The notes under the pieces were generated by a model. The model was not told the DNA's origin and ran no database searches. It saw only the letters and a program-made list of their open reading frames with translations. Source: an uncultured Planctomycetaceae bacterium (GTDB lineage: Bacteria > Planctomycetota > UBA1135 > GCA-002686595). Taken from it: a DNA stretch of 64,000 nucleotides. Where the stretch lies: the NCBI GenBank assembly GCA_964631945.1, contig CAZWAY010000005.1, positions 53,669-117,668 of the forward strand, given 5' to 3'. Shown here one piece after another: positions 1 to 64,000 of this stretch (position 1 is the first letter of the stretch; the number at the start of each line of letters is the position of its first letter). The position numbers and the translations under genes were made by a program.

Positions 1-1182
1 GCCGCGGTCGATGCGGTCGAGGGCGATGCGGAGCTCTTCTGGGGCGAGATCGCGCGCGCCTTCACGGTCGATCGCGGGATGGTCAACCTGAACAACGGCG
101 GCGTCTCGCCCAGTCCGCGCCTGGTCCAGGAGGCGATGAAGCGTCACCTGGACGTCTCGAACGAGGCGCCGGCCTACACCATGTGGCGCATCCTGGAGCC
201 CGAGCGCGAGGGCGTGCGCGCGCGCCTGGCCCAGACCTTCGGCGTCGATCCGGAGGAGGTCGCGATCACGCGCAACGCCTCGGAGAGCCTGCAGACCTGC
301 CAGTTCGGCTTCGACCTCCAGCGCGGCGACGAGGTCCTGACGACGACCCAGGACTATCCGCGCATGCTCACGACCTTCAAGCAGCGCGAGCGGCGCGAGG
401 GCATCGTGCTGGTGCAGTTCTCGATCCCGACCCCGTGCGAGGACCCGGGCGAGATCGTGCGCCGCTTCGAGGCCCACATCACGCCGCGCACGCGGCTGAT
501 CCTGGTGTCGCACGTGGTCTTCCTGACCGGCCAGATCCTGCCCGTGGCCGAGGTCGTGGCACTCGGACGAAAGCACGGCATCCCAGTGCTGGTGGACGGC
601 GCCCACGCGCTCGCGCACTTCGACTTCGAGCTCGCGGAGCTCGACTGCGACTACTACGCCTCGAGCCTGCACAAGTGGCTGTTTGCGCCGCACGGCACGG
701 GCCTCCTGTACGTGCGCAAGGCCAAGATCGGCGGGCTGTGGCCGCTGATGGCCGCGGACGAGAAGCAGCAGGACGACATCCGCAAGTTCGAGGAGATCGG
801 CACGCACCCGGCGGCCAACGCGTTGGCCATCGCCGAAGCGCTCGTGTTCCACGAGACGCTCGGGCCCAAGCGCAAGGAGCGGCGCCTGATCGAGCTGCGC
901 GAGGCCTGGGCCGAGCCGCTGGCGCGTCACGAGCGCGTGCGCTTCCACACCAGCCGCAAGCCCGGCTTCGCCTGCGGCCTGGCGCTGGTCGAGCTCGAGG
1001 GCATCGACTCCGAGAAGCTCGCGGCGCACCTGTGGGACAAGCACAAGATCTTCGTGGTCGCCATCAAGCACGCCGAGTTCCAGGGCATCCGCGTCTCGCC
1101 CAGCGTGTACACGCTGAAGAGCGAGCTGGCGCGCTTCGTCGAGGCGATGGAGTCGGTGATCCGCGCCGGCTTGCCGGGCTAG
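1..1182 (+). CDS. PLP-dependent class V aminotransferase / cysteine-desulfurase-like, 5'-partial (frame open to window start)
   Basis: ORF track 79..1182, and the same frame is open from nt 1 (AAVDAVEGDAELFWGEIARAFTVDRGMVNLNNGG). Motifs: VLVDGAHALAHFDFELAELDCDYYASSLHKWLFAPHGTGLLYV (PLP-Lys region). The overlapping 601-aa Arg-rich ORF at 183..1988 is out-of-frame junk. Confidence 0.8.
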   Translation, partial: AAVDAVEGDAELFWGEIARAFTVDRGMVNLNNGGVSPSPRLVQEAMKRHLDVSNEAPAYTMWRILEPEREGVRARLAQTFGVDPEEVAITRNASESLQTCQFGFDLQRGDEVLTTTQDYPRMLTTFKQRERREGIVLVQFSIPTPCEDPGEIVRRFEAHITPRTRLILVSHVVFLTGQILPVAEVVALGRKHGIPVLVDGAHALAHFDFELAELDCDYYASSLHKWLFAPHGTGLLYVRKAKIGGLWPLMAADEKQQDDIRKFEEIGTHPAANALAIAEALVFHETLGPKRKERRLIELREAWAEPLARHERVRFHTSRKPGFACGLALVELEGIDSEKLAAHLWDKHKIFVVAIKHAEFQGIRVSPSVYTLKSELARFVEAMESVIRAGLPG

Positions 1183-53838: not shown

Positions 53839-54648
53839 CTAGTAGCGGTCGCGGTACTCCTCGGGGAGCAGCGCATCGAGCGGGTCGCCGTGGCCCTGGC
53901 TCGGGAACGGCGCCTGGGGCTGGTGGCCAGGCTGCGTAAACTCGCCCGAGATCGCGTCGAGCTTCTGCATCGTCTCGTAGAAGTCGATGCCGCTGCCTGC
54001 GACCTGCGGCTGACCCTGTCCGTGGAGGGCGTGGGGCGCGACACCCGCGGGCGGAGCCGACTGGGCGCTGCCGAGCACGCGCCGGACCTCCTGGGTCGCG
54101 TGCAGCAGAGCCTCGAAGCCCGCGCGCAGTTGCAGGTCGACCGCGTGCACTCGCTCGTCGAAGTGCGCGTGCAGCTTGTCGAGGCTCGCCGCGAGGCGGA
54201 AGACGGCGTCCTGCGAGTGGTCTCCGGCCGTGTTCTTGTCGTCCTGGCTCTGCATCTGGGCCTGCTGCTGGCTCGCGACCGCGGTGATGCTCTCGTGGAT
54301 CTGGAGCAACGAGGTGCGCAACTGGGCGAGCTTGGTCGAGAGCTGATCGTTCACGAGGTGCAGCTCGGCCTGCAGTGCCTCGCTGCTCTCCGAGTGATCG
54401 CTCTGGGGCAGCGTGGCCGGAGCCGCCGCGCGCGCCACGATCCCGAGCCCGAAGAAGAACAGTCCGCCCACCACCAGGGCGCCGTTCTGCACGCCGAAGG
54501 CGGCTGCCTGGCGCGCGATCTTGGCCACCTGCCAGGAGTACTGCGGCGCCAGTGCGAAGGCCACGCCCGTTGCCACGAGCGCGAAGCCGACGAAGAACAG
54601 GAAGCCTGCGCCCTTGTGCGAACGGGTTGCGAATTCGGTCGAGGCCAT
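53839..54648 (-). CDS. Hypothetical two-TM membrane protein with C-terminal Gln-rich coiled-coil
   Basis: Start MASTEFATRSHKGAGFLFFVGFALVATGVAFALAP at residue 58 of ORF 53839..54819. Second TM is ALVVGGLFFFGLGIV. Then LQAELHLVNDQLSTKLAQLRTSLLQIHESI. Confidence 0.5.
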   Translation of the reverse strand: MASTEFATRSHKGAGFLFFVGFALVATGVAFALAPQYSWQVAKIARQAAAFGVQNGALVVGGLFFFGLGIVARAAAPATLPQSDHSESSEALQAELHLVNDQLSTKLAQLRTSLLQIHESITAVASQQQAQMQSQDDKNTAGDHSQDAVFRLAASLDKLHAHFDERVHAVDLQLRAGFEALLHATQEVRRVLGSAQSAPPAGVAPHALHGQGQPQVAGSGIDFYETMQKLDAISGEFTQPGHQPQAPFPSQGHGDPLDALLPEEYRDRY

Positions 54649-54854
54649 GGTGAGGTTCGGTGGAGGAGACGGACGTCCGAGGGCGCGGTCCGGGGTGCGC
54701 TCGGCGAGGCCCCGGCCCGATCGAGGCCTCCGGGCGGAGGCGGAATCGGCGCGAGATCCCTCCTCGAACGAGCGCTCCTCGCGGCTTGAGGAAAGAGGCG
54801 TCTTCTCGCGCCCTCGCACCCCCCGGGGGCCTGCGGCTATGGTGCTCGCCGAGA

Positions 54855-56630
54855 ATGGCCTTCCCGCTCCCGTCTCCGGCTCCGCGCGCCTCCCGAGGCA
54901 AGGTCCATGGGATCGCGGTCGCGCCCGGGCTCGCCCTGGGCAGCGTGCACATCGTCCTGACCGGTCCGACCGACGTGCCCACCTGGTCCGTGAAGCGCGA
55001 GGACGTGCCGTTCGAGATCGGGCGCCTGGCCTCGGCCCTGAACTCGGCCGCCGAACGGCTGGAGGAGCGCCAGCGTGCGGTGGCGCTCTCGGCCGGGCCG
55101 AAGGACGCCGAGATCTTCGCCGTGCACCGCATGATCCTGAAGGATCCGCACGCCATGAGCGAGGTCGAGCGCGCGATCTCGGAGCAGCGCATCAACGCGG
55201 AGGCAGCCGTGAAGCTGCTGATCGAGCGCTACCAGGAGCGCTTCGGCAAGCTGGATGGTGGCAACGTGCGCAACCTGGCCTCGGACGTCTCCGATCCATG
55301 GCGCTACGTGCTGAACGTGCTGCTCGAGCGCGACCGGGAGCAGGTGTTGCAGGCCGGGCAGCACGTGATCCTGGCGGCCGCCGAGCTCACTCCCGCAGTG
55401 GTCACGTTCCTCGAGCGCGAGCGTCTGCTGGCCGTGGTGGCCGAGACCGGTGGGCGCTTCTCGCACGGGGCCGTGCTCGCGCGCTCGCTCGGGCTGCCGT
55501 GCGTGGTCGGGCTCCCGAACCTGCTGGCGCGCCTGGAGCAGGGCATGCAAATGGCCGTCGACGGCGACCATGGCTCGGTCTTGCTCTCGCCCTCCGCTTC
55601 GCAGGTGAGCGAGTTCGAGGAGCGCAAGCGCCTGCTCGAGGATCGACGCGAGTCCTACCGCGCCGACGCCGCGCTCCCGGGCACGACCCTGGACGGCCGA
55701 TCCCTCTCGGTGCAGGTCAACGTGGAGAGCCTCCGCGACCTGGACACCTTCGATCAGGCGCACACCGACGGCATCGGCCTGCTGCGGACCGAGTTCCTCT
55801 ACCTCGAGCGCAACGAGTTCCCCTCCGAGGAGGAACAGTACCGCCTCTACCGCAGCGTGCTGGAGCGCATGGCCGGACGGCCCACGACCCTGAGGCTGCT
55901 CGACATCGGGGGCGACAAACCCCTGCCCTATTTCCAGACGCCTCCGGAGGCCAATCCGGCCCTGGGCTGGCGCGGGATCCGCATCACCCTGCGCTGGCGC
56001 GACCTCCTGCGCGTGCAGCTGCGCGCCCTGCTGCGGGCCAGCACGGCGGGCGACATGCGCATCCTGATGCCGATGATCAGCTCGCTGGAGGAGGTGCGCG
56101 AGGTGCACCGGCTGTTCGCGGAGGTCCGCTCCCAGCTCGGCGAGCAGGGCTACCCCACGGCCGACGACGTGCCGGTCGGGGCCATGATCGAGGTCCCTTC
56201 CGCGCTGCTGGAGATCGAGCGCATCGTGCGCGAGGTCGACTTCGTGAGCGTCGGGACCAACGACCTGGTGCAATACCTGCTCGCGGTCGACCGCGACAAC
56301 TCGTGGGTTTCCGGCCTCTACGAGCCGCACCACCCGGCCGTGATCCGGGCCCTGAAGCAGGTGGCCGACGCGGCCCTGCGCGTCGGGAAGTCGTGCTCGG
56401 TGTGCGGTGAGATGGCCAGCGATCCCGCCGTGACCGTGCTCCTGTGCGGGTTCGGCTACGACTCGGTCAGCGTGGCGCCCCAGTTCGTGCCGGTGATCAA
56501 GTACGCGATCCGCCACTCGCGTCACGCCGACCTGCTGGGACTCGCCGAGCAGGTGCTGGCGGCGGAGACGGCGCAGGACGTGCGCGGCCTGCTGGACCAA
56601 GCGACGCGCGGGATGTCCTCGGCAAGCTGA
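54855..56630 (+). CDS. ptsI: Phosphoenolpyruvate-protein phosphotransferase (PTS enzyme I)
   Basis: Start MAFPLPSPAPRASRGKVHGIAVAPGLALG inside ORF 54660..56630. Phospho-His region GGRFSHGAVLARSLGLPCVVG. PEP-utilizing C-terminal domain with VSVGTNDLVQYLLAVDR and CGEMASDP. Confidence 0.9.
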   Translation: MAFPLPSPAPRASRGKVHGIAVAPGLALGSVHIVLTGPTDVPTWSVKREDVPFEIGRLASALNSAAERLEERQRAVALSAGPKDAEIFAVHRMILKDPHAMSEVERAISEQRINAEAAVKLLIERYQERFGKLDGGNVRNLASDVSDPWRYVLNVLLERDREQVLQAGQHVILAAAELTPAVVTFLERERLLAVVAETGGRFSHGAVLARSLGLPCVVGLPNLLARLEQGMQMAVDGDHGSVLLSPSASQVSEFEERKRLLEDRRESYRADAALPGTTLDGRSLSVQVNVESLRDLDTFDQAHTDGIGLLRTEFLYLERNEFPSEEEQYRLYRSVLERMAGRPTTLRLLDIGGDKPLPYFQTPPEANPALGWRGIRITLRWRDLLRVQLRALLRASTAGDMRILMPMISSLEEVREVHRLFAEVRSQLGEQGYPTADDVPVGAMIEVPSALLEIERIVREVDFVSVGTNDLVQYLLAVDRDNSWVSGLYEPHHPAVIRALKQVADAALRVGKSCSVCGEMASDPAVTVLLCGFGYDSVSVAPQFVPVIKYAIRHSRHADLLGLAEQVLAAETAQDVRGLLDQATRGMSSAS

Positions 56631-56816
56631 GCTCTCTCTCCGGGCCGCAGCGCCATTCAATTTGCATCGTTCTACGGAGGGAGCGACCGTGGCGCGTTTG
56701 CGCGCTCGTCCAGGACTTCGTTCCAACATTTAGAACTTCGAAGACAAGCTCCCTATTCCGGCGCACATCCGCGCTCGCGTGGTGACGAACACGCCGAATC
56801 GCGCGGCTACTTTCGA

Positions 56817-57653
56817 GTGCAGGTGATCGATAGAATCCCGCGGCTGGTTCCCTCGCCTCGGTTGCACCAGGTCAGTCGTCGTCAGACCTTTCGGGGGACT
56901 CCAGTGGACAGCCACAAGAAAACGACGAGGGGAAGATTGCGATCCACCAAGGTCGGTTGGGGACGAGCGGACGCGCCGCGGCGCGGGCGCTGGTCCCAGC
57001 GCGAGCAGGCGCGTCTGAAGGAGCTCTACGGACTCCGGGACGACGCCCTGATCGCTCGTGAGCTCAAGCGGCCCGTGGCCAGCATCCGTCGCATGGCGGA
57101 GAAGCTCTTCACCGGACCCGTCCGGACGGGTCCGTGGACGGCGAACGAGGTCATGGAATTGCGTCGCTACCTCGGCGCGACCTCACCCGAGGTCATCGGC
57201 CGCATCCTCGGACGCCCGACCGAGGAGGTGAACGAGCGGATCTTCGATCTCGGGCGCATCAAGAAGGACGGCTCGTGGCCACGCGAGGAGCTGGCCGAGT
57301 TCAAGCGCATCTACGGCACGCGCACGGACGAGGATCTCTCGCGCATCTTCGGGCGCTCGCTGACGGAGATCGCCACGCTGGCCGAGGGGCTCGCGCTGTC
57401 CAAGGACAAGGCCTTCGTGCGCAAGCTCGCCGGCGAGGCCGCCACGCGCATGCCGCGCTGGCGGCCCGAGGAGCTCGAGATCCTGCGCCGGGACTACCCC
57501 GTTCAGTCCAACCTGGAGCTGGCACGCGCGCTCGGACGCTCGGTCAAGAGCGTGGTCTCCAAGGCGCACCACATGGGCCTCAAGAAGTCCTCCGAACGCC
57601 TGCGCACCATGGGGCGGGAGAACGTCAGTCTGCGCTACCAGGACGCGGACTGA
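56817..57653 (+). CDS. Tandem-repeat protein: four roughly 40-aa helix-turn-helix-like (Myb/SANT- or sigma-region-4-like) repeats
   Basis: Repeats W-SQREQARLKELYGLRDDALIARELKRPVASIRRMAEKL, W-TANEVMELRRYLGATSPEVIGRILGRPTEEVNERIFDL, W-PREELAEFKRIYGTRTDEDLSRIFGRSLTEIATLAEGL, and W-RPEELEILRRDYPVQSNLELARALGRSVKSVVSKAHHM. Alternative GTG start at 56904 with GGGGGA RBS. Confidence 0.55.
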   Translation: MQVIDRIPRLVPSPRLHQVSRRQTFRGTPVDSHKKTTRGRLRSTKVGWGRADAPRRGRWSQREQARLKELYGLRDDALIARELKRPVASIRRMAEKLFTGPVRTGPWTANEVMELRRYLGATSPEVIGRILGRPTEEVNERIFDLGRIKKDGSWPREELAEFKRIYGTRTDEDLSRIFGRSLTEIATLAEGLALSKDKAFVRKLAGEAATRMPRWRPEELEILRRDYPVQSNLELARALGRSVKSVVSKAHHMGLKKSSERLRTMGRENVSLRYQDAD

Positions 57654-57687
57654 GCGCCCCGGGCCTCCGCCAATCGTCCGATGCGCA

Positions 57688-60600
57688 TCACCCGATGCGT
57701 TCGGCGTGCAGCGTACAGGCCCCCAGGTGCTCCTCCACGCGCCCGTGGATCCGGAACGGCCCGCGGCCGATCAGGCGGTGCCCATCGCGCGCGTAGACCG
57801 GTGGGAAGACCACCACCTCGGCAATGCCGCTCTCGTCCTCGAGCGTGAGGAAGCGCATCCAACCGCCCGCGCTCGTGCGCACCGGACGCGAGGCGGCCAG
57901 CCAGCCGACGAGCTGCACGCGCTCGCCGCGCCGGTGTGCGAGTTCGGCGCAGGGCAGACTCGCACCGTGCTCGTCGCGCGCGAGGCAGGGGAAGAGCGTG
58001 GTCGGATGGGCACATACGGTGAGTCCGAGCAGCTCGAGTTCGAGCCGCCCCCGTCGCACGGGATCGAACTCGGGCAAGGCCGGCAAGGCCAGGGCCGACG
58101 GGGGCGGAGCGGGGAAGAGCGGCGTGCTCTCGCCCGGGCGGAGGCGTCGGGCGTCGGGCGCGAGCGCGGGCCGTGACCAGCCGCTCGCACGCTCGCGCGC
58201 GGCGGGGGACGTGCGGCAGGCGGCCAGCGCGCGCGCGTCCAGGCCGCTTGGCGGTCGGCGCGCGGGCGAACTCAACAGGTGCAGGCGCAGCAGCATCTCG
58301 GGTCGCGTGCGATCGAACGCATCCAGCGCCCCGCACAGGATCAGGCGCTCGCTCTCGTCGGCGCGCGCGCCCGAGCGCTCCACGAAGTCGGGCAGCGAGA
58401 GATAGGGGCCGCCGCGCTCCCGCTCGGCCAGCAACGCCTGGCGCGTGGCTTCCGACAGGCCCTTGACGCGCTCGAGCCCGACGCGGAGGGCGGGCGTGCC
58501 GTCGCGCCCACCGCGCTCCAGGGTGAAGCCCGTATCGCTGCGGTTCACGTCCGGCGGCAGGATCGGGACGCCCAGCCGGCGCGCCTCCTCGACGTAGACG
58601 CGCGCGTCGTAGTAGCCGGTCTGGCTGTTCAGGAAGGCCGTGAGGAACTCGGCCGGATGGTGCGCTTTCAGGTACGCCGTGCGGTAGGCGATGCGCCCGT
58701 AGGTGACCGCGTGCGCCTTGCAGAAGCCGAAGGCCGAGAAGTTGGCGACCAACTCCCAGACGCGCTCGGCGTCGCACCGGGCGATGCGCTCGCCCTCGCA
58801 GGCCGCCAGGAAGCGCGCGCGCAGCTCGATCAGCTCGGGCCCACGTCTCTTCGCCAGCGCGCGGCGCAAGAGGTCGGCCTCGGAGAGCTCGAAGCCGGCC
58901 AGCAGCACCACGACCTGCATCACGTCCTCCTGGTACAGCATCACGCCCTGCGTCTCCGCCAGCAGCTCCTCCAGGCGCGGGTGCGGCGCATGCGGCGGCT
59001 CGAGCCCGCGGAAGCGGCGGATGAAGGCGTCCTTCATGCCCGAGCCGGCCGGACCGGGTCGGATCAGCGCCACGGCCTGGATCACGGCGTCCATCGTGCG
59101 CGCGCCGGTCTGCTGCAGCAGGTTGCGCATGCCCGGCGACTCGATCTGGAAGCAGCCGAGCGTGGCCCCGCGCTCGAGCAGCGCGCCGGTACGCTCGTCG
59201 TCCTCGGGGATGCGCGCCAGTTCCGCGTGGCTCAGCCCCAGCGCGCGCAGGCAATCGTCGACCACCGTCAGCGCGCGGTTGCCGAGCAGATCCATCTTCA
59301 CCAGGCCGATGGCCTCGACGCCGTCCTTGTCGAGCTGCGTCACGATCACGCCCTTGGCGGCGCGCTGGCAGGCGACGAAGTCCGTGATCGGCCCGGGCGT
59401 CACCACCACCCCGCCCGGGTGCAGGCCGAGGTGGCGCGGGCAGTCGAGCAGCGCGCTCGCCATGCGCAGCACGAAGGCATGGCGCGGATCCTCGAAGGGG
59501 AAGCCGCGGCACTCGGGCGTGGCCGCGAGGGTGCGTGCGATGGGATCGTGCGCGAGCGCGGGCGGTAGCGCGTGTAGCAGCGGCGTGTCGTCCCGCGCGC
59601 GCTCGCCCTCCCGTCCCTCTTCCTCTTCTTCTTCCGAGCCATCCGGCACCTCGCCCGTCCCGGCCTCGGCCGCGCCGAGCTCCGCGCCCATGCCCGGCAG
59701 CCGGCGCGACCAGCGGTTGACCTCGACCGGCGCCAGGCCCTCGGCCAGCGCCACCGCGCGGAAGGCCGCGCGCATGCCGAAGGTCGAGAGCGTGGCGATC
59801 ATGGCCGTGCGCTCGAGGCCGAAGGCCGTGCCGACCTCGGCCAGTACCTCGTCGCGCCGCCGCCAGCAGAAGTCGAGATCGATGTCGGGCCGGTCCTTGC
59901 GCGCGGGATTGAGGAAGCGCTCGAACGGCAGGCGGTAGCGCAGCGGGTCGGCGTCGGTCAGCTCGAGGCAGTACGCCACCAGGCTGTCGGCCGCCGAGCC
60001 GCGCCCGACGCTCGGGATGCCGCGCGCGCGCGCGAAGTCGGCGATCTTCTTCACCAGCAGGAAGTAGGGCGCGAAGCCGAGCCCCTCGATCGCCGCCAGC
60101 TCGTGCTCGAGGCGCCGCACCACCTCCGGCCGCAGCGGCGTGTAGCGCTTGCGCGCGCCGTCGAAGGCCAGCGCGCACAGCGCCGAGTAGGGCGTCTCGT
60201 GCCCCTCCAGCTCGATCGAGGGGAAGAGCACGCCGCCGAGCGGCGGCACGTAGCGGCACGCCTCGGCGATCTCGAGCGTGCGCGCGAGCAGGCCGAGGAC
60301 GCCCTTCTTGCTCGCGCGGAACGGCCCCCGACACTCCGGCAACCCGGCGTAGAGCGTGGCCATCTCCGCGCTCCCGAGCAGGTGCGCGGGCTCCTCGGCC
60401 AGCCATTCGCGTGCGAGGTCGCAGCGCAGCGCGTTGTGCTTGATCGCGGCGCGCACGCGGTGCGCCGCGTAATCCGCCGCGCGCGCGCAGTGCACGTCCG
60501 GCACGGCCAGCGTGGCGAGCCGCGCGGCGCGCGCGCACGCCAGCAGCTCCTGGGCCGGGACCGCGCGCGCGGGCGGGGGCACCTTGGGCGCCGGGAGCAG

Positions 60601-61167
60601 CGCCACGCGCTCGGCCGGGTCGAGCGGACGTGCGCTGCGCGTGCGCGCGACGGATCGTCGCGCGAGCGCGGCCGGCGACACGGCGACGAACAGCCGCCGC
60701 GCGGGCACGCGCCCGGCCAGCGCGAGCGCGAGCCGCGGGTGATCGACGAGCAGGAACAGTCCCTCCTGGAAGCGCTCGACCGCCGCGACGAGCTCGAAGT
60801 GCTCGGGCGCGAGCCCGCGCTCGTGCTCCGCGCGATCTCCGGGATCGCCACCGAGCTGGCGCGCCGAGACCAGCTTGCACAGGTTGCGGTAGCCCTGGGC
60901 GTCGCTCGCCAGCGCGATCACGCGTCCGGGACGTCCGCTCGGATCGCTGAGCTCCGCGCCGAGGATCGGGCGCACGCGCGCCGTGTTCGCTCCGCCGTCC
61001 AGGCGCTCGGCCGCCTTCAGGAAGTCCACCGAGCCGCCGAGCGTGTCCACGTCGGTGAGCGCCAGCGCGGGCAGAGCGAGCTCCGCCGCGCGCGCGAGCA
61101 GCGCCGCGGGGGGATCGACGCCGGTCAGCAGGGAATGCCAGCCGTGGCTGCGCAGGGGGACGTACAT
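57688..61167 (-). CDS. dnaE2: Error-prone DNA polymerase DnaE2 (ImuC), 1159 aa
   Basis: PHP domain LRSHGWHSLLTGVDPPAAL, and polIII-alpha core GIPSVGRGSAADSLVAYCLELTDADP, GLVKMDLLGNRALTV, and FGFCKAHAVTYGRIAYRTAYLKAHHP. The overlapping 1225-aa ORF 57635..61312 in another frame is junk. Confidence 0.9.
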   Translation of the reverse strand: MYVPLRSHGWHSLLTGVDPPAALLARAAELALPALALTDVDTLGGSVDFLKAAERLDGGANTARVRPILGAELSDPSGRPGRVIALASDAQGYRNLCKLVSARQLGGDPGDRAEHERGLAPEHFELVAAVERFQEGLFLLVDHPRLALALAGRVPARRLFVAVSPAALARRSVARTRSARPLDPAERVALLPAPKVPPPARAVPAQELLACARAARLATLAVPDVHCARAADYAAHRVRAAIKHNALRCDLAREWLAEEPAHLLGSAEMATLYAGLPECRGPFRASKKGVLGLLARTLEIAEACRYVPPLGGVLFPSIELEGHETPYSALCALAFDGARKRYTPLRPEVVRRLEHELAAIEGLGFAPYFLLVKKIADFARARGIPSVGRGSAADSLVAYCLELTDADPLRYRLPFERFLNPARKDRPDIDLDFCWRRRDEVLAEVGTAFGLERTAMIATLSTFGMRAAFRAVALAEGLAPVEVNRWSRRLPGMGAELGAAEAGTGEVPDGSEEEEEEGREGERARDDTPLLHALPPALAHDPIARTLAATPECRGFPFEDPRHAFVLRMASALLDCPRHLGLHPGGVVVTPGPITDFVACQRAAKGVIVTQLDKDGVEAIGLVKMDLLGNRALTVVDDCLRALGLSHAELARIPEDDERTGALLERGATLGCFQIESPGMRNLLQQTGARTMDAVIQAVALIRPGPAGSGMKDAFIRRFRGLEPPHAPHPRLEELLAETQGVMLYQEDVMQVVVLLAGFELSEADLLRRALAKRRGPELIELRARFLAACEGERIARCDAERVWELVANFSAFGFCKAHAVTYGRIAYRTAYLKAHHPAEFLTAFLNSQTGYYDARVYVEEARRLGVPILPPDVNRSDTGFTLERGGRDGTPALRVGLERVKGLSEATRQALLAERERGGPYLSLPDFVERSGARADESERLILCGALDAFDRTRPEMLLRLHLLSSPARRPPSGLDARALAACRTSPAARERASGWSRPALAPDARRLRPGESTPLFPAPPPSALALPALPEFDPVRRGRLELELLGLTVCAHPTTLFPCLARDEHGASLPCAELAHRRGERVQLVGWLAASRPVRTSAGGWMRFLTLEDESGIAEVVVFPPVYARDGHRLIGRGPFRIHGRVEEHLGACTLHAERIG

Positions 61168-62481: not shown

Positions 62482-63852
62482 TCACTGATTCAGCGACGGC
62501 GTGCGCAGCCGGAAGCCGTCGGGGCGCAGCGGGTGGCTTTGCGCGAGCGGCGTGCTCGTGCCGCGCAGGATGCGGCCGAAGCCGAGCTTCGCGCGCAATT
62601 CGTCGAGGGCGTGGTCGAGGCGGCGGTGGCGGTCGGCGCGGCTGGCGTCGTGCGTCGCGGGCCCGGGGCAGTCGTGGGCGAGCTCGTCCGCGCCCGAGAA
62701 GAGTTGCCCCTGCCAGCCGGGCGCGCGCGCCAGGCCGTGGAAGGCGATCCCGAGGCGCTTCAGCAGCGCGCGCTTCCTCGGCAGCGTGCGGTAGAGCGCG
62801 AGCGCGGCGCGCCACAGCTCGTCGGTCGCGTCGCTGGGCGCGCTCAGGGCGCGCCGGCGCTGGGCCGCCAGGCCCTCCTCCGACCACGCGCCCGGGCGCG
62901 GGTTCGTGTCGACCCAGCGCACGCGCACCTCGAGCGTGCGCGCCTGCACGCCGAGCGCGCGCAGGCGCTGCGCGCCGCGCTCGACCAGGTACGAGAGCAT
63001 CGCCTCGACCACCTCCGGGCGGCCCTCCTCGGGCTCGAAGGTGGTCTCGCGCGAGAGCGACTTCGGCGGGCGCGCCAGCAGCGCGCCGTCCTCGCCGAGC
63101 GCGTGCGTGGCCTCGACCGGGGCCTCGTCGCGGCCGTGGGCGCGCTCGAACAGCACGAGTCCGGCGCTGCCGAAGGCGGTGAAGAGCACCTCGCGCGAGA
63201 GCAGGCGCAGCTCGCACACTCGCCGCAGCGCGAAGCGCTCGAGCGCGGCGCCCGTGGCGTGCCCGACGCCGGGCAGGTGCTCGAGCGGCAGCGCGCCCAC
63301 GAAGGCGAGCTCGTGCCCGGGCAGGACCTCGCACACGCCGGCGGGCTTGGCGAGCTTGCCCGCCAGGCGCGCCACGAGCCGGTTCGAGCCCACGCCGACG
63401 GTGAGCGCGAGGCGTGTGTGCGCCTTCACTGCGCGCTGGATCGCCAGCGCGGCGTCGAAGGCCGCGCCGAAGAGCCGCGCGCTGCCCGTCAGATCGAGGT
63501 AGAAGTCGTCGATCGAGGCGACCTCGACACGCGGCGTGAAGCCCAGCAGGACGCGCGTGGCCTCGTCGCGCAGGCGGTTGGCGGCCTGCGAATCGCCGTC
63601 GCGGAACAGCGCGCGTGGACAGCGGCGCTTCGCCTCCGAGAGGTGCATGCCCGCGCGCACGCCGAAGGCGCGCGCCTCGTAGGAGCACGACATCACCAGG
63701 TTGCGCGAGGTGGGCGCGCCGCCGACGACCACCGGCTTGCCGACCAGCTCCGGGTGCAGCGCCTGCTCGACGGACGCCAGGAAGGCGTCCACGTCGAGGT
63801 GCAGGATGCGGCGCGTGGTGCGCGGGAGGAGGGCGTCGCGATGGGGGGGCAC
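62482..63852 (-). CDS. imuB: ImuB (Y-family DNA polymerase-like, catalytically degenerate) of the imuB-dnaE2 mutagenesis cassette
   Basis: RRILHLDVDAFLASVEQALHPELVGKPVVVGG (Y-family N-terminus), and SIDDFYLDLTG. GTG start at 63852 chosen because the shared upstream motif lies at 63876-63893. The ORF track extends to 63981, so the start is uncertain. Confidence 0.75.
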   Translation of the reverse strand: MPPHRDALLPRTTRRILHLDVDAFLASVEQALHPELVGKPVVVGGAPTSRNLVMSCSYEARAFGVRAGMHLSEAKRRCPRALFRDGDSQAANRLRDEATRVLLGFTPRVEVASIDDFYLDLTGSARLFGAAFDAALAIQRAVKAHTRLALTVGVGSNRLVARLAGKLAKPAGVCEVLPGHELAFVGALPLEHLPGVGHATGAALERFALRRVCELRLLSREVLFTAFGSAGLVLFERAHGRDEAPVEATHALGEDGALLARPPKSLSRETTFEPEEGRPEVVEAMLSYLVERGAQRLRALGVQARTLEVRVRWVDTNPRPGAWSEEGLAAQRRRALSAPSDATDELWRAALALYRTLPRKRALLKRLGIAFHGLARAPGWQGQLFSGADELAHDCPGPATHDASRADRHRRLDHALDELRAKLGFGRILRGTSTPLAQSHPLRPDGFRLRTPSLNQ

Positions 63853-63875
63853 GCTCGGGATCCTCGCTGGCCGAA

Positions 63876-63893
63876 ACCCTAACAGATGGCGAA
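63876..63893 (-). promoter_or_regulatory. Second copy of the conserved motif, 24 nt upstream of the imuB GTG
   Basis: Plus strand reads ACCCTAACAGATGGCGAA, versus ACCCTAACAAAAGGCGAA at 61198-61215. Confidence 0.45.
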
Positions 63894-64000
63894 CTTCGGC
63901 GCCCCGGGCCGCCCCCCGAGGGGCGGGCGCTAGGCTGTGCCGCCCATGGAACTCGTGCTCGTCCACCCGGAGATCCCGCACAACTCCGGTTGCGCCGCGC

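Follow-up and report, generated by a model that had tools for sequence, protein, structure and literature searches.

A conserved four-repeat Myb-like protein encoded beside ptsI in uncultured Planctomycetota

What does a bacterium do with a protein built from four copies of one small helical unit, and with which of its neighbours does that protein act? The question is raised by a gene in a 64,000-nucleotide stretch of DNA from an uncultured Planctomycetaceae bacterium (GenBank assembly GCA_964631945.1, contig CAZWAY010000005.1), the whole of which is referred to here as the window. Myb repeats in tandem are characteristic of transcription factors in eukaryotes, and to our knowledge no bacterial protein with four Myb repeats in one chain has been characterised so far. 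A first-pass annotation of the locus had described a 278-aa protein of four helix-turn-helix-like repeats lying next to a mutagenesis cassette. Our own reading, to which we give a probability of about 0.5, is that the product would bind DNA as a regulator or architectural protein and be coupled to the regulatory PTS.

The ORF that contains the gene spans positions 56817-57653 of the plus strand, and its start had been placed at 56817 or at GTG 56904. Neither start is supported by the homologues, whose N-termini align with TTG 56937; in the majority of the loci and protein models under comparison, the codon there is GTG, TTG or ATG. Because of these homologue starts, and because in-frame stops lie just upstream of the same position in several homologues (L005, L009, L010, L032 and L074), the start was assigned to TTG 56937. 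The protein thus keeps its four repeats and shortens to 238 aa, with a mass of 27 kDa and a very basic pI of 10.4. The commonest 7-mers preceding the start are GGAGGAG-type words (71 loci), and GTG 56817 falls between the two conserved promoter-like blocks (Table 1).

Table 1 Features of the four-repeat gene and its upstream region. Helix limits in the repeats follow the secondary structure of the AF2 model; aa, residues of the 238-aa protein.
Feature	Position in window	Strand	Details
ptsI (PTS Enzyme I)	54855..56630	+	start approximate; TIGR01417 PTS_I_fam, 491.9 bits against a cut-off of 341.7
Intergenic region (promoter plus ~95 nt 5' UTR)	56631..56936	+	306 nt after the ptsI stop; the 'AT-richer leader'
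Palindrome-like block, TTCCAACATTTAGAA then CTTCGAAG	56721..56743	.	conserved in the alignment of the window and L001-L004
GCTACT block, possible -35-region element	56806..56811	+	19 nt upstream of the -10-like hexamer
-10-like hexamer TAGAAT	56831..56836	+	TAGAATCC invariant in the window and L001-L004
Shine-Dalgarno-like GAGGGG	56927..56932	+	4 nt ahead of TTG 56937; putative, read from the sequence
Four-repeat Myb-like protein, CDS	56937..57653	+	238 aa, TTG start, TGA stop
Repeat 1	56976..57110	+	aa 14-58; basic arm PRRGRW; helices 21-30, 36-43, 47-57; helix 3 basic
Repeat 2	57120..57260	+	aa 62-108; helices 69-78, 84-91, 95-107; helix 3 acidic
Repeat 3	57264..57392	+	aa 110-152; helices 116-128, 131-138, 142-151; helix 3 acidic to neutral
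Basic linker with conserved L-x-KDKAF helix	57393..57452	+	aa 153-172; helix 158-165; charge +5 over aa 152-176
Repeat 4	57453..57584	+	aa 173-216; MPRW; helices 177-186, 192-199, 203-212 (RSVKSVVSKAH); helix 3 basic
Conserved C-terminal helix	57585..57650	+	aa 217-238; K-x3-RL-x2-MGRENV-x2-RY; helix 219-235

Long spurious ORFs are common in GC-rich genomes, and several ORFs in other frames overlap this locus; it could accordingly be read as a spurious ORF in GC-rich DNA, or as an assembly or frameshift duplication. The conservation data already refute that reading, which is left with virtually no probability. Searches returned 983 homologues of conserved length (typically 236-238 aa) with invariant columns, 164 clusters at 50% identity were found at E ≤ 1e-30, and the structure model is a confident one. 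The gene is real and strongly conserved.

Self-comparison of the protein resolved four internal repeats of about 45-60 aa each, at offsets of 48, 47 and 61 aa and with BLOSUM window scores of 33-55. Comparison of the family profiles of repeats R1-R4 with each other by hhalign gave probabilities of 95.7-98.6% (E 6.5e-16 to 9e-9), bearing out the fourfold internal repetition that had been proposed. At the DNA level, Tandem Repeats Finder reported no repeat in the gene, the sole direct repeat being a 17-nt pair of 82% identity. Because the gene holds no tandem DNA repeat, the protein repeats are old and diverged rather than the product of a frameshift or assembly duplication, and the duplication artefact was rejected.

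The AlphaFold (AF2) model (pLDDT 87.8, pTM 0.66) consists of four three-helix bundles, each of which is predicted to be of the Myb/SANT type, helices 2 and 3 forming a helix-turn-helix. Profile matches agree with the earlier suggestion that every repeat is a single unit of Myb/SANT- or sigma-region-4-like type: Pfam Myb_DNA-binding is found in 74 of 88 family members at E ≤ 0.01 (best 1.7e-9), and Sigma70_r4_2 in 63 of the 88. The window protein itself, matched over aa 16-49 in repeat 1, reaches 20.5 bits (E 5e-4) against PF00249, below the gathering threshold of 24.4 bits that close family members exceed with 28.1 and 35.2 bits. Repeat 4 carries weak Sigma70_r4_2 and GcrA matches in homologues. 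Foldseek searches of the PDB returned SNAPc4, c-Myb R1R2R3 and Reb1 as best matches, at the level of single domains only (whole-chain TM ~0.2, E 8e-3 or worse); together with the DNA-binding domain of GcrA, the nearest bacterial structure, these are the nearest solved relatives of the bundles. A sequence search of solved structures gave sub-threshold matches only (SANT domain of DNAJC1, 2lvs).

The core of a canonical Myb repeat is formed by three regularly spaced tryptophans or other aromatics. Here the first tryptophan of each repeat (W19, W67, W114 and W175) is invariant, and the other two aromatic positions are occupied by Ile, Leu, Ala or Phe. Because only the first tryptophan is kept, we describe the repeats as Myb-like or SANT-like rather than canonical Myb. 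Tandem Myb DNA-binding domains are known from eukaryotes, in c-Myb (R1R2R3), SNAPc4/SNAP190 (4.5 repeats), Reb1 and Cdc5/Cef1. The protein described here differs from these in its bacterial host and a sequence identity of only 14-27%, in the loss of the second and third aromatic positions to aliphatic residues, in having two acidic recognition helices out of four, and in two additional elements: a basic linker helix (KDKAF) that joins R3 to R4, and a C-terminal helix, both of them conserved in the family. In the linker, L154, K156, K158 and F160 are invariant and D157 and A159 nearly so in alignment A2, while L154 and D157 are invariant in alignment A4; in the C-terminal helix, the invariant columns are K217, R221, L222, M225, G226, R227, N229, V230 and R233. 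The four-repeat protein is a variant of a known fold, and a new one.

A bacterial comparison is offered by GcrA, the Caulobacter cell-cycle regulator, which joins one DNA-binding domain to a C-terminal domain that binds sigma-70 (sigma-70 region 2). The modelled repeats share the fold of the GcrA N-terminal DNA-binding domain (PDB 5yiu), but the chain here has four such domains and no counterpart of the GcrA C-terminal domain. Pfam GcrA (PF07750) matches 4 of the 88 members at 18.5-20.1 bits against a cut-off of 26.9, through profile positions 2-52 of 155, and full-length GcrA homology was not found. Sigma-70 factors carry region 2, for -10 recognition and core binding, besides region 4; here, matches to that family are confined to Sigma70_r4_2-like matches of single repeats, with none to region 2 or region 3.

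The pI ranges from 9.5 to 11.5 across the family. Positive charge is located in the N-terminal tail (+5), the third helix of R1 (+2), the linker (+5), the third helix of R4 (+2) and also the C-terminal tail, and in R2 and R3 the third helix is negative. We consider that the four-repeat protein probably binds DNA. A single chain would bind double-stranded DNA, probably without dimerising, and would probably cover an extended asymmetric site. Judged by charge, the surfaces that touch DNA may be the basic PRRGRW arm at the N-terminus, the basic helix 3 of R1 and of R4, the linker with its KDK and the C-terminal tail, and repeats 2 and 3 would more likely hold the architecture or touch a protein partner. 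SANT-type domains, which share this fold, often bind proteins rather than DNA; given that precedent, the acidity of two of the four recognition helices counts against DNA binding.

All source names and record titles that carry a lineage are from Planctomycetota or Planctomycetes, bar one 'Acidobacterium sp.' title, and the named hits are all uncultured MAGs. The family is restricted to uncultured members of Planctomycetota and the phages that likely infect them. The view of the protein as uncharacterised held up: NCBIfam has no model for the four-repeat protein, no well-known family of known function claims it, PADLOC defence-system models gave no match to it, and source names are 'hypothetical protein' throughout, except for P0085, a 'DNA-binding CsgD family transcriptional regulator' by JGI auto-annotation. 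In a phylum where little is understood about gene regulation, a family so large and strongly conserved is a candidate for a lineage-specific regulator or chromatin protein.

The genomic context of the homologues identifies one constant neighbour. In 75 of 80 loci the four-repeat gene is directly preceded, on the same strand, by ptsI, which encodes PTS Enzyme I. Many loci also share a wider syntenic block, Tex - x - PtsI - four-repeat gene - DnaE2, with Tex present in 45 and DnaE2 in 50 of the 80. The four-repeat protein is about as conserved as the enzymes around it (60% identity between L030 and the window, with 55% for PtsI and 55% for DnaE2). Among nine distant homologues, ptsI stands upstream of five, with the other neighbours differing; the adjacency persists where Enzyme I has fallen to 37-41% and the four-repeat protein to 35-45% identity and all other neighbours are different. 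Three MAGs carry a second copy, and neither these copies nor the phage branch described below are linked to ptsI.

The association with a mutagenesis cassette (dnaE2/imuB-like) that framed the first-pass annotation does not survive this comparison. DnaE2 is encoded convergently on the opposite strand, in some loci at a distance of 1-3 kb in which other sequence may lie, and it is not adjacent to the distant ptsI-linked homologues. Because distant homologues keep ptsI but not this neighbour, a functional link to dnaE2/imuB as the primary association was rejected.

The spacing between ptsI and the four-repeat gene ranges from -7 to 447 nt among relatives (median 138). The stop and start codons overlap as TTGA in L081 and are 4 nt apart in L087, and such overlapping or abutting codons suggest co-translation with ptsI. 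Since the gene in the window lies 306 nt from ptsI and has promoter-like elements of its own, co-transcription is not required there. A general nucleoid-associated or architectural protein, which would coat or bend DNA with little specificity and have no tie to Enzyme I, would fit several of these observations, the adjacency to ptsI then being inherited gene order. The protein is small and very basic, with several basic arms; it is highly conserved and usually single-copy in its lineage; Tex and DnaE2 are syntenic as well; and the window gene has those promoter-like elements. We nevertheless judge this account unlikely, as the ptsI adjacency outlives the replacement of Tex, DnaE2 and all other neighbours, and as ptsI stop and gene start codons overlap or abut. 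Were the pairing merely inherited gene order, the finding would shrink to one more uncharacterised helix-turn-helix family.

The Enzyme I of planctomycetes is placed in 'group R', and PTS transporters are absent from these bacteria (PMC2405797). Because ptsI is the sole constant neighbour and its Enzyme I belongs to this transporter-less regulatory group, we propose that the four-repeat protein and Enzyme I share a pathway, in which the former would act as a transcriptional regulator or architectural factor, either as an output of Enzyme I or as its regulator. The persistent pairing is a testable lead on the targets of the regulatory, transporter-less PTS in Planctomycetota.

A protein-protein adaptor of SANT type could also explain the pairing. 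The repeats would then dock on Enzyme I or HPr, on RNA polymerase or sigma, as the folds of GcrA and sigma region 4 do, or on another partner, and modulate that partner directly without binding DNA. Translational coupling of the kind seen with ptsI in some lineages is typical of complex-forming subunits, and R2 and R3 each have an acidic third helix; some lineages moreover continue with STAS, PAS histidine kinase and response regulator genes, a signalling context. Set against this, a nucleic-acid ligand is favoured by the strong net positive charge and by the basic, homeodomain-like arm at the N-terminus, the nearest bacterial structure, from GcrA, is a DNA-binding domain, the sigma-binding C-terminal domain of GcrA is absent, and phage relatives are annotated as DNA-binding proteins or transcriptional regulators. 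We regard an adaptor as quite unlikely.

If the linkage to ptsI is functional, the DNA-binding protein that we favour would resemble PTS-controlled regulators (the PRD types LicT, MtlR and LevR; Mlc) in its proposed role only, that of relaying PTS state to gene expression. The fold is unrelated, and no PRD, EIIA/EIIB or ROK domain was detected. PRD regulators carry conserved phosphorylatable histidines, whereas Pfam and NCBIfam gave no PRD match for this protein and no histidine is conserved across ptsI-linked members. The sole nearly invariant histidine, H211, is not kept in the distant ptsI-linked members, so that a simple conserved phospho-histidine site there is disfavoured and was rejected as a candidate. 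When E. coli and B. subtilis sequences served as tblastn queries, an approach of low sensitivity, neither the window nor the loci yielded a gene for HPr, NPr or EIIA-Ntr. More speculatively, and with the odds well against it, the protein may be what has been missing from the transporter-less regulatory PTS of these Planctomycetota, its transcriptional output: Enzyme I or HPr, in phosphorylated or unphosphorylated form, would bind or modify it, the cellular PEP/pyruvate ratio would directly set its DNA binding, and related phages would bring a copy of their own to use or overrule the switch. This would amount to a PTS-to-DNA link on a fold not previously used for such a link.

The phage branch has a different neighbour. 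Its full-length homologues, 33-43% identical and including two IMG/VR viral contigs, stand immediately upstream of a DEAD-box helicase; four of the nine distant homologues directly precede a DEAD helicase in phage-like modules, and in P0251 nine repeat copies are fused to a helicase. The window protein matches the phrog_323 profile ('transcriptional regulator, D5-like') with E 4.9e-22 and 79.9 bits, its residues 112-216 aligning with positions 95-191 of the 319 in the profile; these ~100 positions amount to two repeats and denote a repeat-level match rather than full-length membership. Structure matches in BFVD are phage proteins of ~240-260 aa, one of them a T5-like 'D5 protein'. The D5 protein of phage T5, after which PHROG 323 is named, is treated as a helix-turn-helix DNA-binding protein and is encoded in a gene set that also includes helicase D2 (PMC13405049), a grouping like that of the helicase-linked phage branch here. 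The chromosomal copies differ in being linked to ptsI, not to a helicase.

Helicase linkage, the P0251 fusion and the T5 parallel, together with the convergent DnaE2 gene in 50 of 80 loci, are what a domesticated phage replication or transcription factor would lead one to expect, partnered by a helicase or by the adjacent DnaE2/ImuB-like polymerases, the latter link being the one that the first-pass annotation implied. We hold this origin and role to be improbable for the chromosomal family. Its members have no adjoining helicase, DnaE2 lies on the opposite strand, 1-3 kb away in some loci, and is missing beside the distant ptsI-linked homologues, and a tblastn search of 50,697 deposited phage genomes gave no match.

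The region between ptsI and the four-repeat gene had been described as an AT-richer leader of 186 nt. It is indeed AT-richer, with a GC content of 55-63% across 56650-56950 against ~70% in the flanks, but the untranslated stretch measures 306 nt. A riboswitch or small RNA in the leader was considered and rejected. Rfam at E ≤ 10 gave nothing over 56500-57100 save one chance-level match, and only a tRNA over the whole window; RNAalifold on 16 UTRs predicted no pairs and no consensus structure; the window UTR folds no better than its shuffles (z = +1.08); and anti-Shine-Dalgarno pairing was indistinguishable from composition (mean z -0.38). A terminator scan returned as its sole terminator-like site one inside the gene and on the wrong strand.

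The leader is an ordinary promoter plus 5' UTR. A generic sigma-70 scan found no promoter because there is no TTGACA-like -35, and the promoter-like elements were picked out by conservation. In 16 related loci the start is preceded, at 97-129 nt, by TAGAAT, TACAAT or TACACT, and GCTAC(C/T) or a near variant is found at the same distance from this hexamer in 12 of the 16 (all except L004, L005, L024 and L025). Further upstream, the palindrome-like block (Table 1) is absent from more distant loci; its counterpart in the nearest relatives is TTCCAnCTTTTGGAAG, and it is a possible operator.

The gene lies in an open reading frame on the forward strand (56817-57653), for which the first-pass annotation had proposed two starts (56817 and GTG 56904) and a size of 278 aa. 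Both starts proved wrong: homologues are typically 236-238 aa long with an N-terminus of the form M-R-x-x-K/G, and in the alignment these N-termini match LRSTKVG in the window, beginning at TTG 56937. At this position 71 related loci mostly carry GTG or TTG (ATG in one locus), and about a quarter have no start codon at this exact column. A purine-rich Shine-Dalgarno word precedes the aligned start, with GGAGGAG-type words as the commonest 7-mers. Longer versions of the protein are excluded by in-frame stops immediately 5' of the aligned start in loci L005, L009, L010, L032 and L074. The homologue starts, the upstream stops and the spacing of the GAGGGG in the window thus define a protein of 238 aa (27.3 kDa, computed pI 10.4), and a noncoding stretch after the upstream gene of 306 nt rather than the 186-nt leader described initially. 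A GC-rich 38-nt palindrome near the 5' end of the coding sequence, inside its first 60 nt, covers the codons of the basic N-terminal arm.

Features of the four-repeat gene, its product and its surroundings
Feature	Position	Strand	Remark
ptsI	54855-56630	+	upstream of four-repeat gene; start approximate
326-aa ORF	53839-54819	-	between Tex and ptsI
Noncoding stretch	56631-56936		
Leader block 3	56721-56735		furthest upstream; palindrome-like TTCCAnCTTTTGGAAG, degenerate in window, then CTTCGAAG in window
Leader block 2	56806-56811 (GCTACT)		GGCTACTTTCG-like
Leader block 1	56831-56836 (TAGAAT)		TAGAATCC, invariant in window and four closest loci
Shine-Dalgarno-like GAGGGG	56927-56932		4 nt ahead of TTG 56937; read in window sequence
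Four-repeat gene	56937-57653	+	
Palindrome in coding sequence	56960-56997		GGGACGAGCGGACGCGCCGCGGCGCGGGCGCTGGTCCC
Palindrome at convergent stops	57673-57696		ATCGTCCGATGCGCATCACCCGAT
DnaE2	57688-61167	-	downstream of four-repeat gene
Y-family polymerase homologue	62482-63981	-	downstream of four-repeat gene
Three-helix bundles R1-R4	aa 21-57, 69-107, 116-151, 177-212		AlphaFold2 model
Short helix in R3-R4 linker	aa 158-165		AlphaFold2 model
C-terminal helix	aa 219-235		AlphaFold2 model

Sliding BLOSUM62 self-comparison recovered the four-fold repeat originally reported, at offsets of 48, 47 and 61 residues and with scores of 33-55 per 25 residues. The family alignment was cut into four repeat segments, followed by profile-profile comparison with hhalign, revealing that R1-R4 are all pairwise related (probability 95.7-98.6%, E 6.5e-16 to 9e-9). 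A frameshift or assembly duplication is ruled out at the DNA level, where Tandem Repeats Finder detected nothing in the gene and the sole direct repeat is a 17-nt pair of 82% identity. Related in protein and lacking a DNA-level counterpart, the repeats are ancient and diverged.

Pfam analysis of the window protein gave a sub-threshold match to Myb_DNA-binding (20.5 bits vs a cut-off of 24.4), and NCBIfam gave no match. Across 88 family members, some of which exceed the curated Pfam cut-offs, Myb_DNA-binding is matched by 74 (best 1.7e-9), Sigma70_r4_2 by 63, Myb_DNA-bind_6 by 34 and GcrA by 4. An AlphaFold2 model built from the 88-sequence alignment was confident (mean pLDDT 87.8, pTM 0.66) and contains four three-helix bundles, which, together with the family-level Myb and Sigma70_r4_2 matches, bears out the HTH-like nature first ascribed to each repeat. 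The top Foldseek matches to the model were SNAPc4, c-Myb R1R2R3 and Reb1; these are weak (E 8e-3 and worse), and the whole-chain TM-scores of about 0.2 are expected for a beads-on-a-string arrangement of domains. The first Trp of each repeat (W19, W67, W114 and W175) is invariant in the alignment and is the only Trp kept. The three-tryptophan signature of canonical Myb is absent, and the repeats are Myb-like/SANT-like rather than canonical Myb.

The closest bacterial relative of each repeat is the DNA-binding domain of GcrA, but the four-repeat protein lacks the GcrA sigma-binding domain and scores under the Pfam cut-off. Likewise, it lacks region 2 of sigma factors and the PRD domains of PRD-type regulators, and, as initially suspected, no well-known family of known function claims it. 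The fold is already known; new are the conserved architecture of four Myb-like repeats plus a linker and C-terminal helix of its own, its confinement to uncultured Planctomycetota and their likely phages, and its persistent pairing with ptsI.

The protein is strongly positively charged, with positive regions in the N-terminal arm PRRGRW (+5 over 20 residues), the linker (+5) and the C-terminal tail. The third helices of R1 and R4 are basic (+2 each), and those of R2 and R3 carry negative charge. Lying ahead of helix 1, the PRRGRW arm looks similar to the basic N-terminal arm of homeodomains, e.g. RKRGRQ in Antennapedia. The charge pattern and fold suggest that the protein quite probably binds double-stranded DNA, in which case it would work like a tandem-Myb DNA-binding domain. 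Binding would probably be as a single chain that needs no dimerisation. The predicted contacts are the basic arm and helix 3 of R1, the KDK linker, helix 3 of R4 and the C-terminal tail, with R2 and R3 expected to serve as spacers or a protein-contact surface.

A word-indexed search returned 983 homologues, the best 60-94% identical, and an exhaustive HMM search returned 5,782 clusters at E<=1e-3, of which 1,271 reach E<=1e-10 and 164 reach E<=1e-30. The weaker tail is made up of further proteins built from this type of repeat. Among them are long arrays of 7-17 repeats, for example P0152 (896 aa, about 17 repeats, low-GC organism) and P0209 (503 aa), and P0251 (807 aa), which fuses an SF2 helicase to nine near-identical repeats. 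At one genome per species, relatives are encoded in 183 genomes. All 80 that were listed come from uncultured MAGs, and their titles nearly all read Planctomycetota; three say only 'bacterium' or 'uncultured bacterium' and one says 'Acidobacterium sp.' and is probably misbinned. For the sources whose names could be retrieved, the organisms named by NCBI are all Planctomycetes or Planctomycetota MAGs. Retrievable source names are all 'hypothetical protein', except for JGI auto-annotations of P0085 ('DNA-binding CsgD family transcriptional regulator') and P0204, a 762-aa multi-repeat protein ('DNA-binding Lrp family transcriptional regulator'). Three MAGs (L017, L022 and L044) carry a second gene copy. 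Around that of L022 (2619-9188), three copies of a ~154-aa basic protein (MAKKKE..RRQRRG..), with a coiled coil and a winged-helix-like C-terminal end, are interleaved with glycine-rich RRM-type RNA-binding proteins.

The leader is indeed AT-richer, with a GC content of 55-63% over 56650-56950 vs roughly 70% on both flanks. Alignment with the four closest loci revealed three conserved blocks. In 16 loci a hexamer TAGAAT, TACAAT or TACACT lies 97-129 nt 5' of the start codon, preceded in 12 of them by GCTAC(C/T) or a close variant about 19 nt further 5'. Conservation suggests that the GCTAC(C/T) and TA(G/C)A(A/C)T pair is the gene's own promoter and that the 5' UTR measures about 95 nt; the two blocks flank GTG 56817. 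A generic sigma-70 scan detected no promoter, owing to the lack of a TTGACA-like -35, and a pair of this kind at a set distance from the start may be how promoters are built in this uncultured lineage. Intergenic length in relatives ranges from -7 to 447 nt (median 138). A structured RNA in the leader is unsupported: an Rfam search gave nothing meaningful, RNAalifold predicted zero pairs on 16 UTRs, the window UTR folded no better than shuffled controls (z = +1.08), and candidate anti-Shine-Dalgarno pairing was not above composition expectation (mean z = -0.38). In all, the AT-richer stretch amounts to an ordinary promoter plus UTR.

The first-pass annotation had tied the gene to a mutagenesis cassette. 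DnaE2 and a Y-family polymerase homologue do lie downstream, DnaE2 being convergent in 50 of 80 loci, but the tighter partner is ptsI, which in 75 of 80 loci lies directly upstream in the same orientation. It encodes a bona fide PTS Enzyme I (TIGR01417, 491.9 bits vs a cut-off of 341.7). The remaining five comprise the three second copies, L038 (contig too short to tell) and L052. The ATCGTCCGATGCGCATCACCCGAT palindrome, 24 nt and imperfect, lies across the 34 nt that separate the two converging stop codons, extends into the dnaE2 3' end and has no T-run; it may be a terminator shared by both genes. Tex is also syntenic, in 45 of 80 loci. The 326-aa ORF beside it has no NCBIfam match; at least nine related loci have a conserved counterpart in this place (29-69% identity).

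Given this wider syntenic block, function and inheritance cannot be told apart from close relatives alone, and nine full-length distant homologues (33-45% identity) were therefore compared. In five (P0137, P0247, P0250, P0253 and P0237) ptsI directly precedes the gene; its Enzyme I is only 37-41% identical to that of the window and every other neighbour is different. In the P0237 contig from JGI the two genes overlap by 11 nt, in L081 their stop and start codons overlap as TTGA, and in L087 a gap of 4 nt separates them.

Tandem HTH arrays are common in phages, and the other four distant homologues (P0171, P0236, P0153 and P0232; loci L086, L088, L089 and L090) lie on high-GC contigs in a phage-like module, set among many small ORFs, with the order GGDEF, two unknowns, four-repeat protein, DEAD-box helicase (in some followed by HNH) and a second, ResIII/DEAD helicase. 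This module recurs on a pair of viral contigs from IMG/VR (L091 and L093; 74-77 kb), and tblastn against deposited phage genomes gave zero matches. A match to the phrog_323 profile 'transcriptional regulator, D5-like' (E 4.9e-22) spans only about two repeats. Structure matches in BFVD were uncharacterised phage tandem-HTH proteins and a T5-like 'D5 protein'; T5 D5 is treated as an HTH DNA-binding protein and listed with helicase D2 (2026 preprint, PMC13405049).

Comas et al. 2008 (PMC2405797) assigned planctomycete Enzyme I to the regulatory class 'group R', the organisms concerned having no PTS transporters. Since the ptsI pairing survives deep divergence, in some loci with coupled stop and start codons, a role in the same pathway is the most economical reading, and we put at about 0.5 the probability that the protein is a DNA-binding regulator or architectural factor in the pathway of Enzyme I. 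Functional coupling to Enzyme I, taken separately, is tentative, and a direct DNA-binding output of a regulatory PTS is unlikely. Against the link, the gene in the window lies 306 nt from ptsI and carries promoter-like elements of its own, and neither the second copies nor the phage copies are ptsI-linked. Further points against are that a low-sensitivity search saw no HPr or EIIA gene nearby, and that distant ptsI-linked members do not keep H211, the one histidine that is close to invariant. In three of the five distant ptsI-linked loci, genes for a STAS protein, a PAS/HisKA histidine kinase and a single-domain response regulator come next after the pair, in the same orientation (L081 8808-11170, L087 5343-7830 and the P0237 JGI contig), and the five genes may form one signalling operon.
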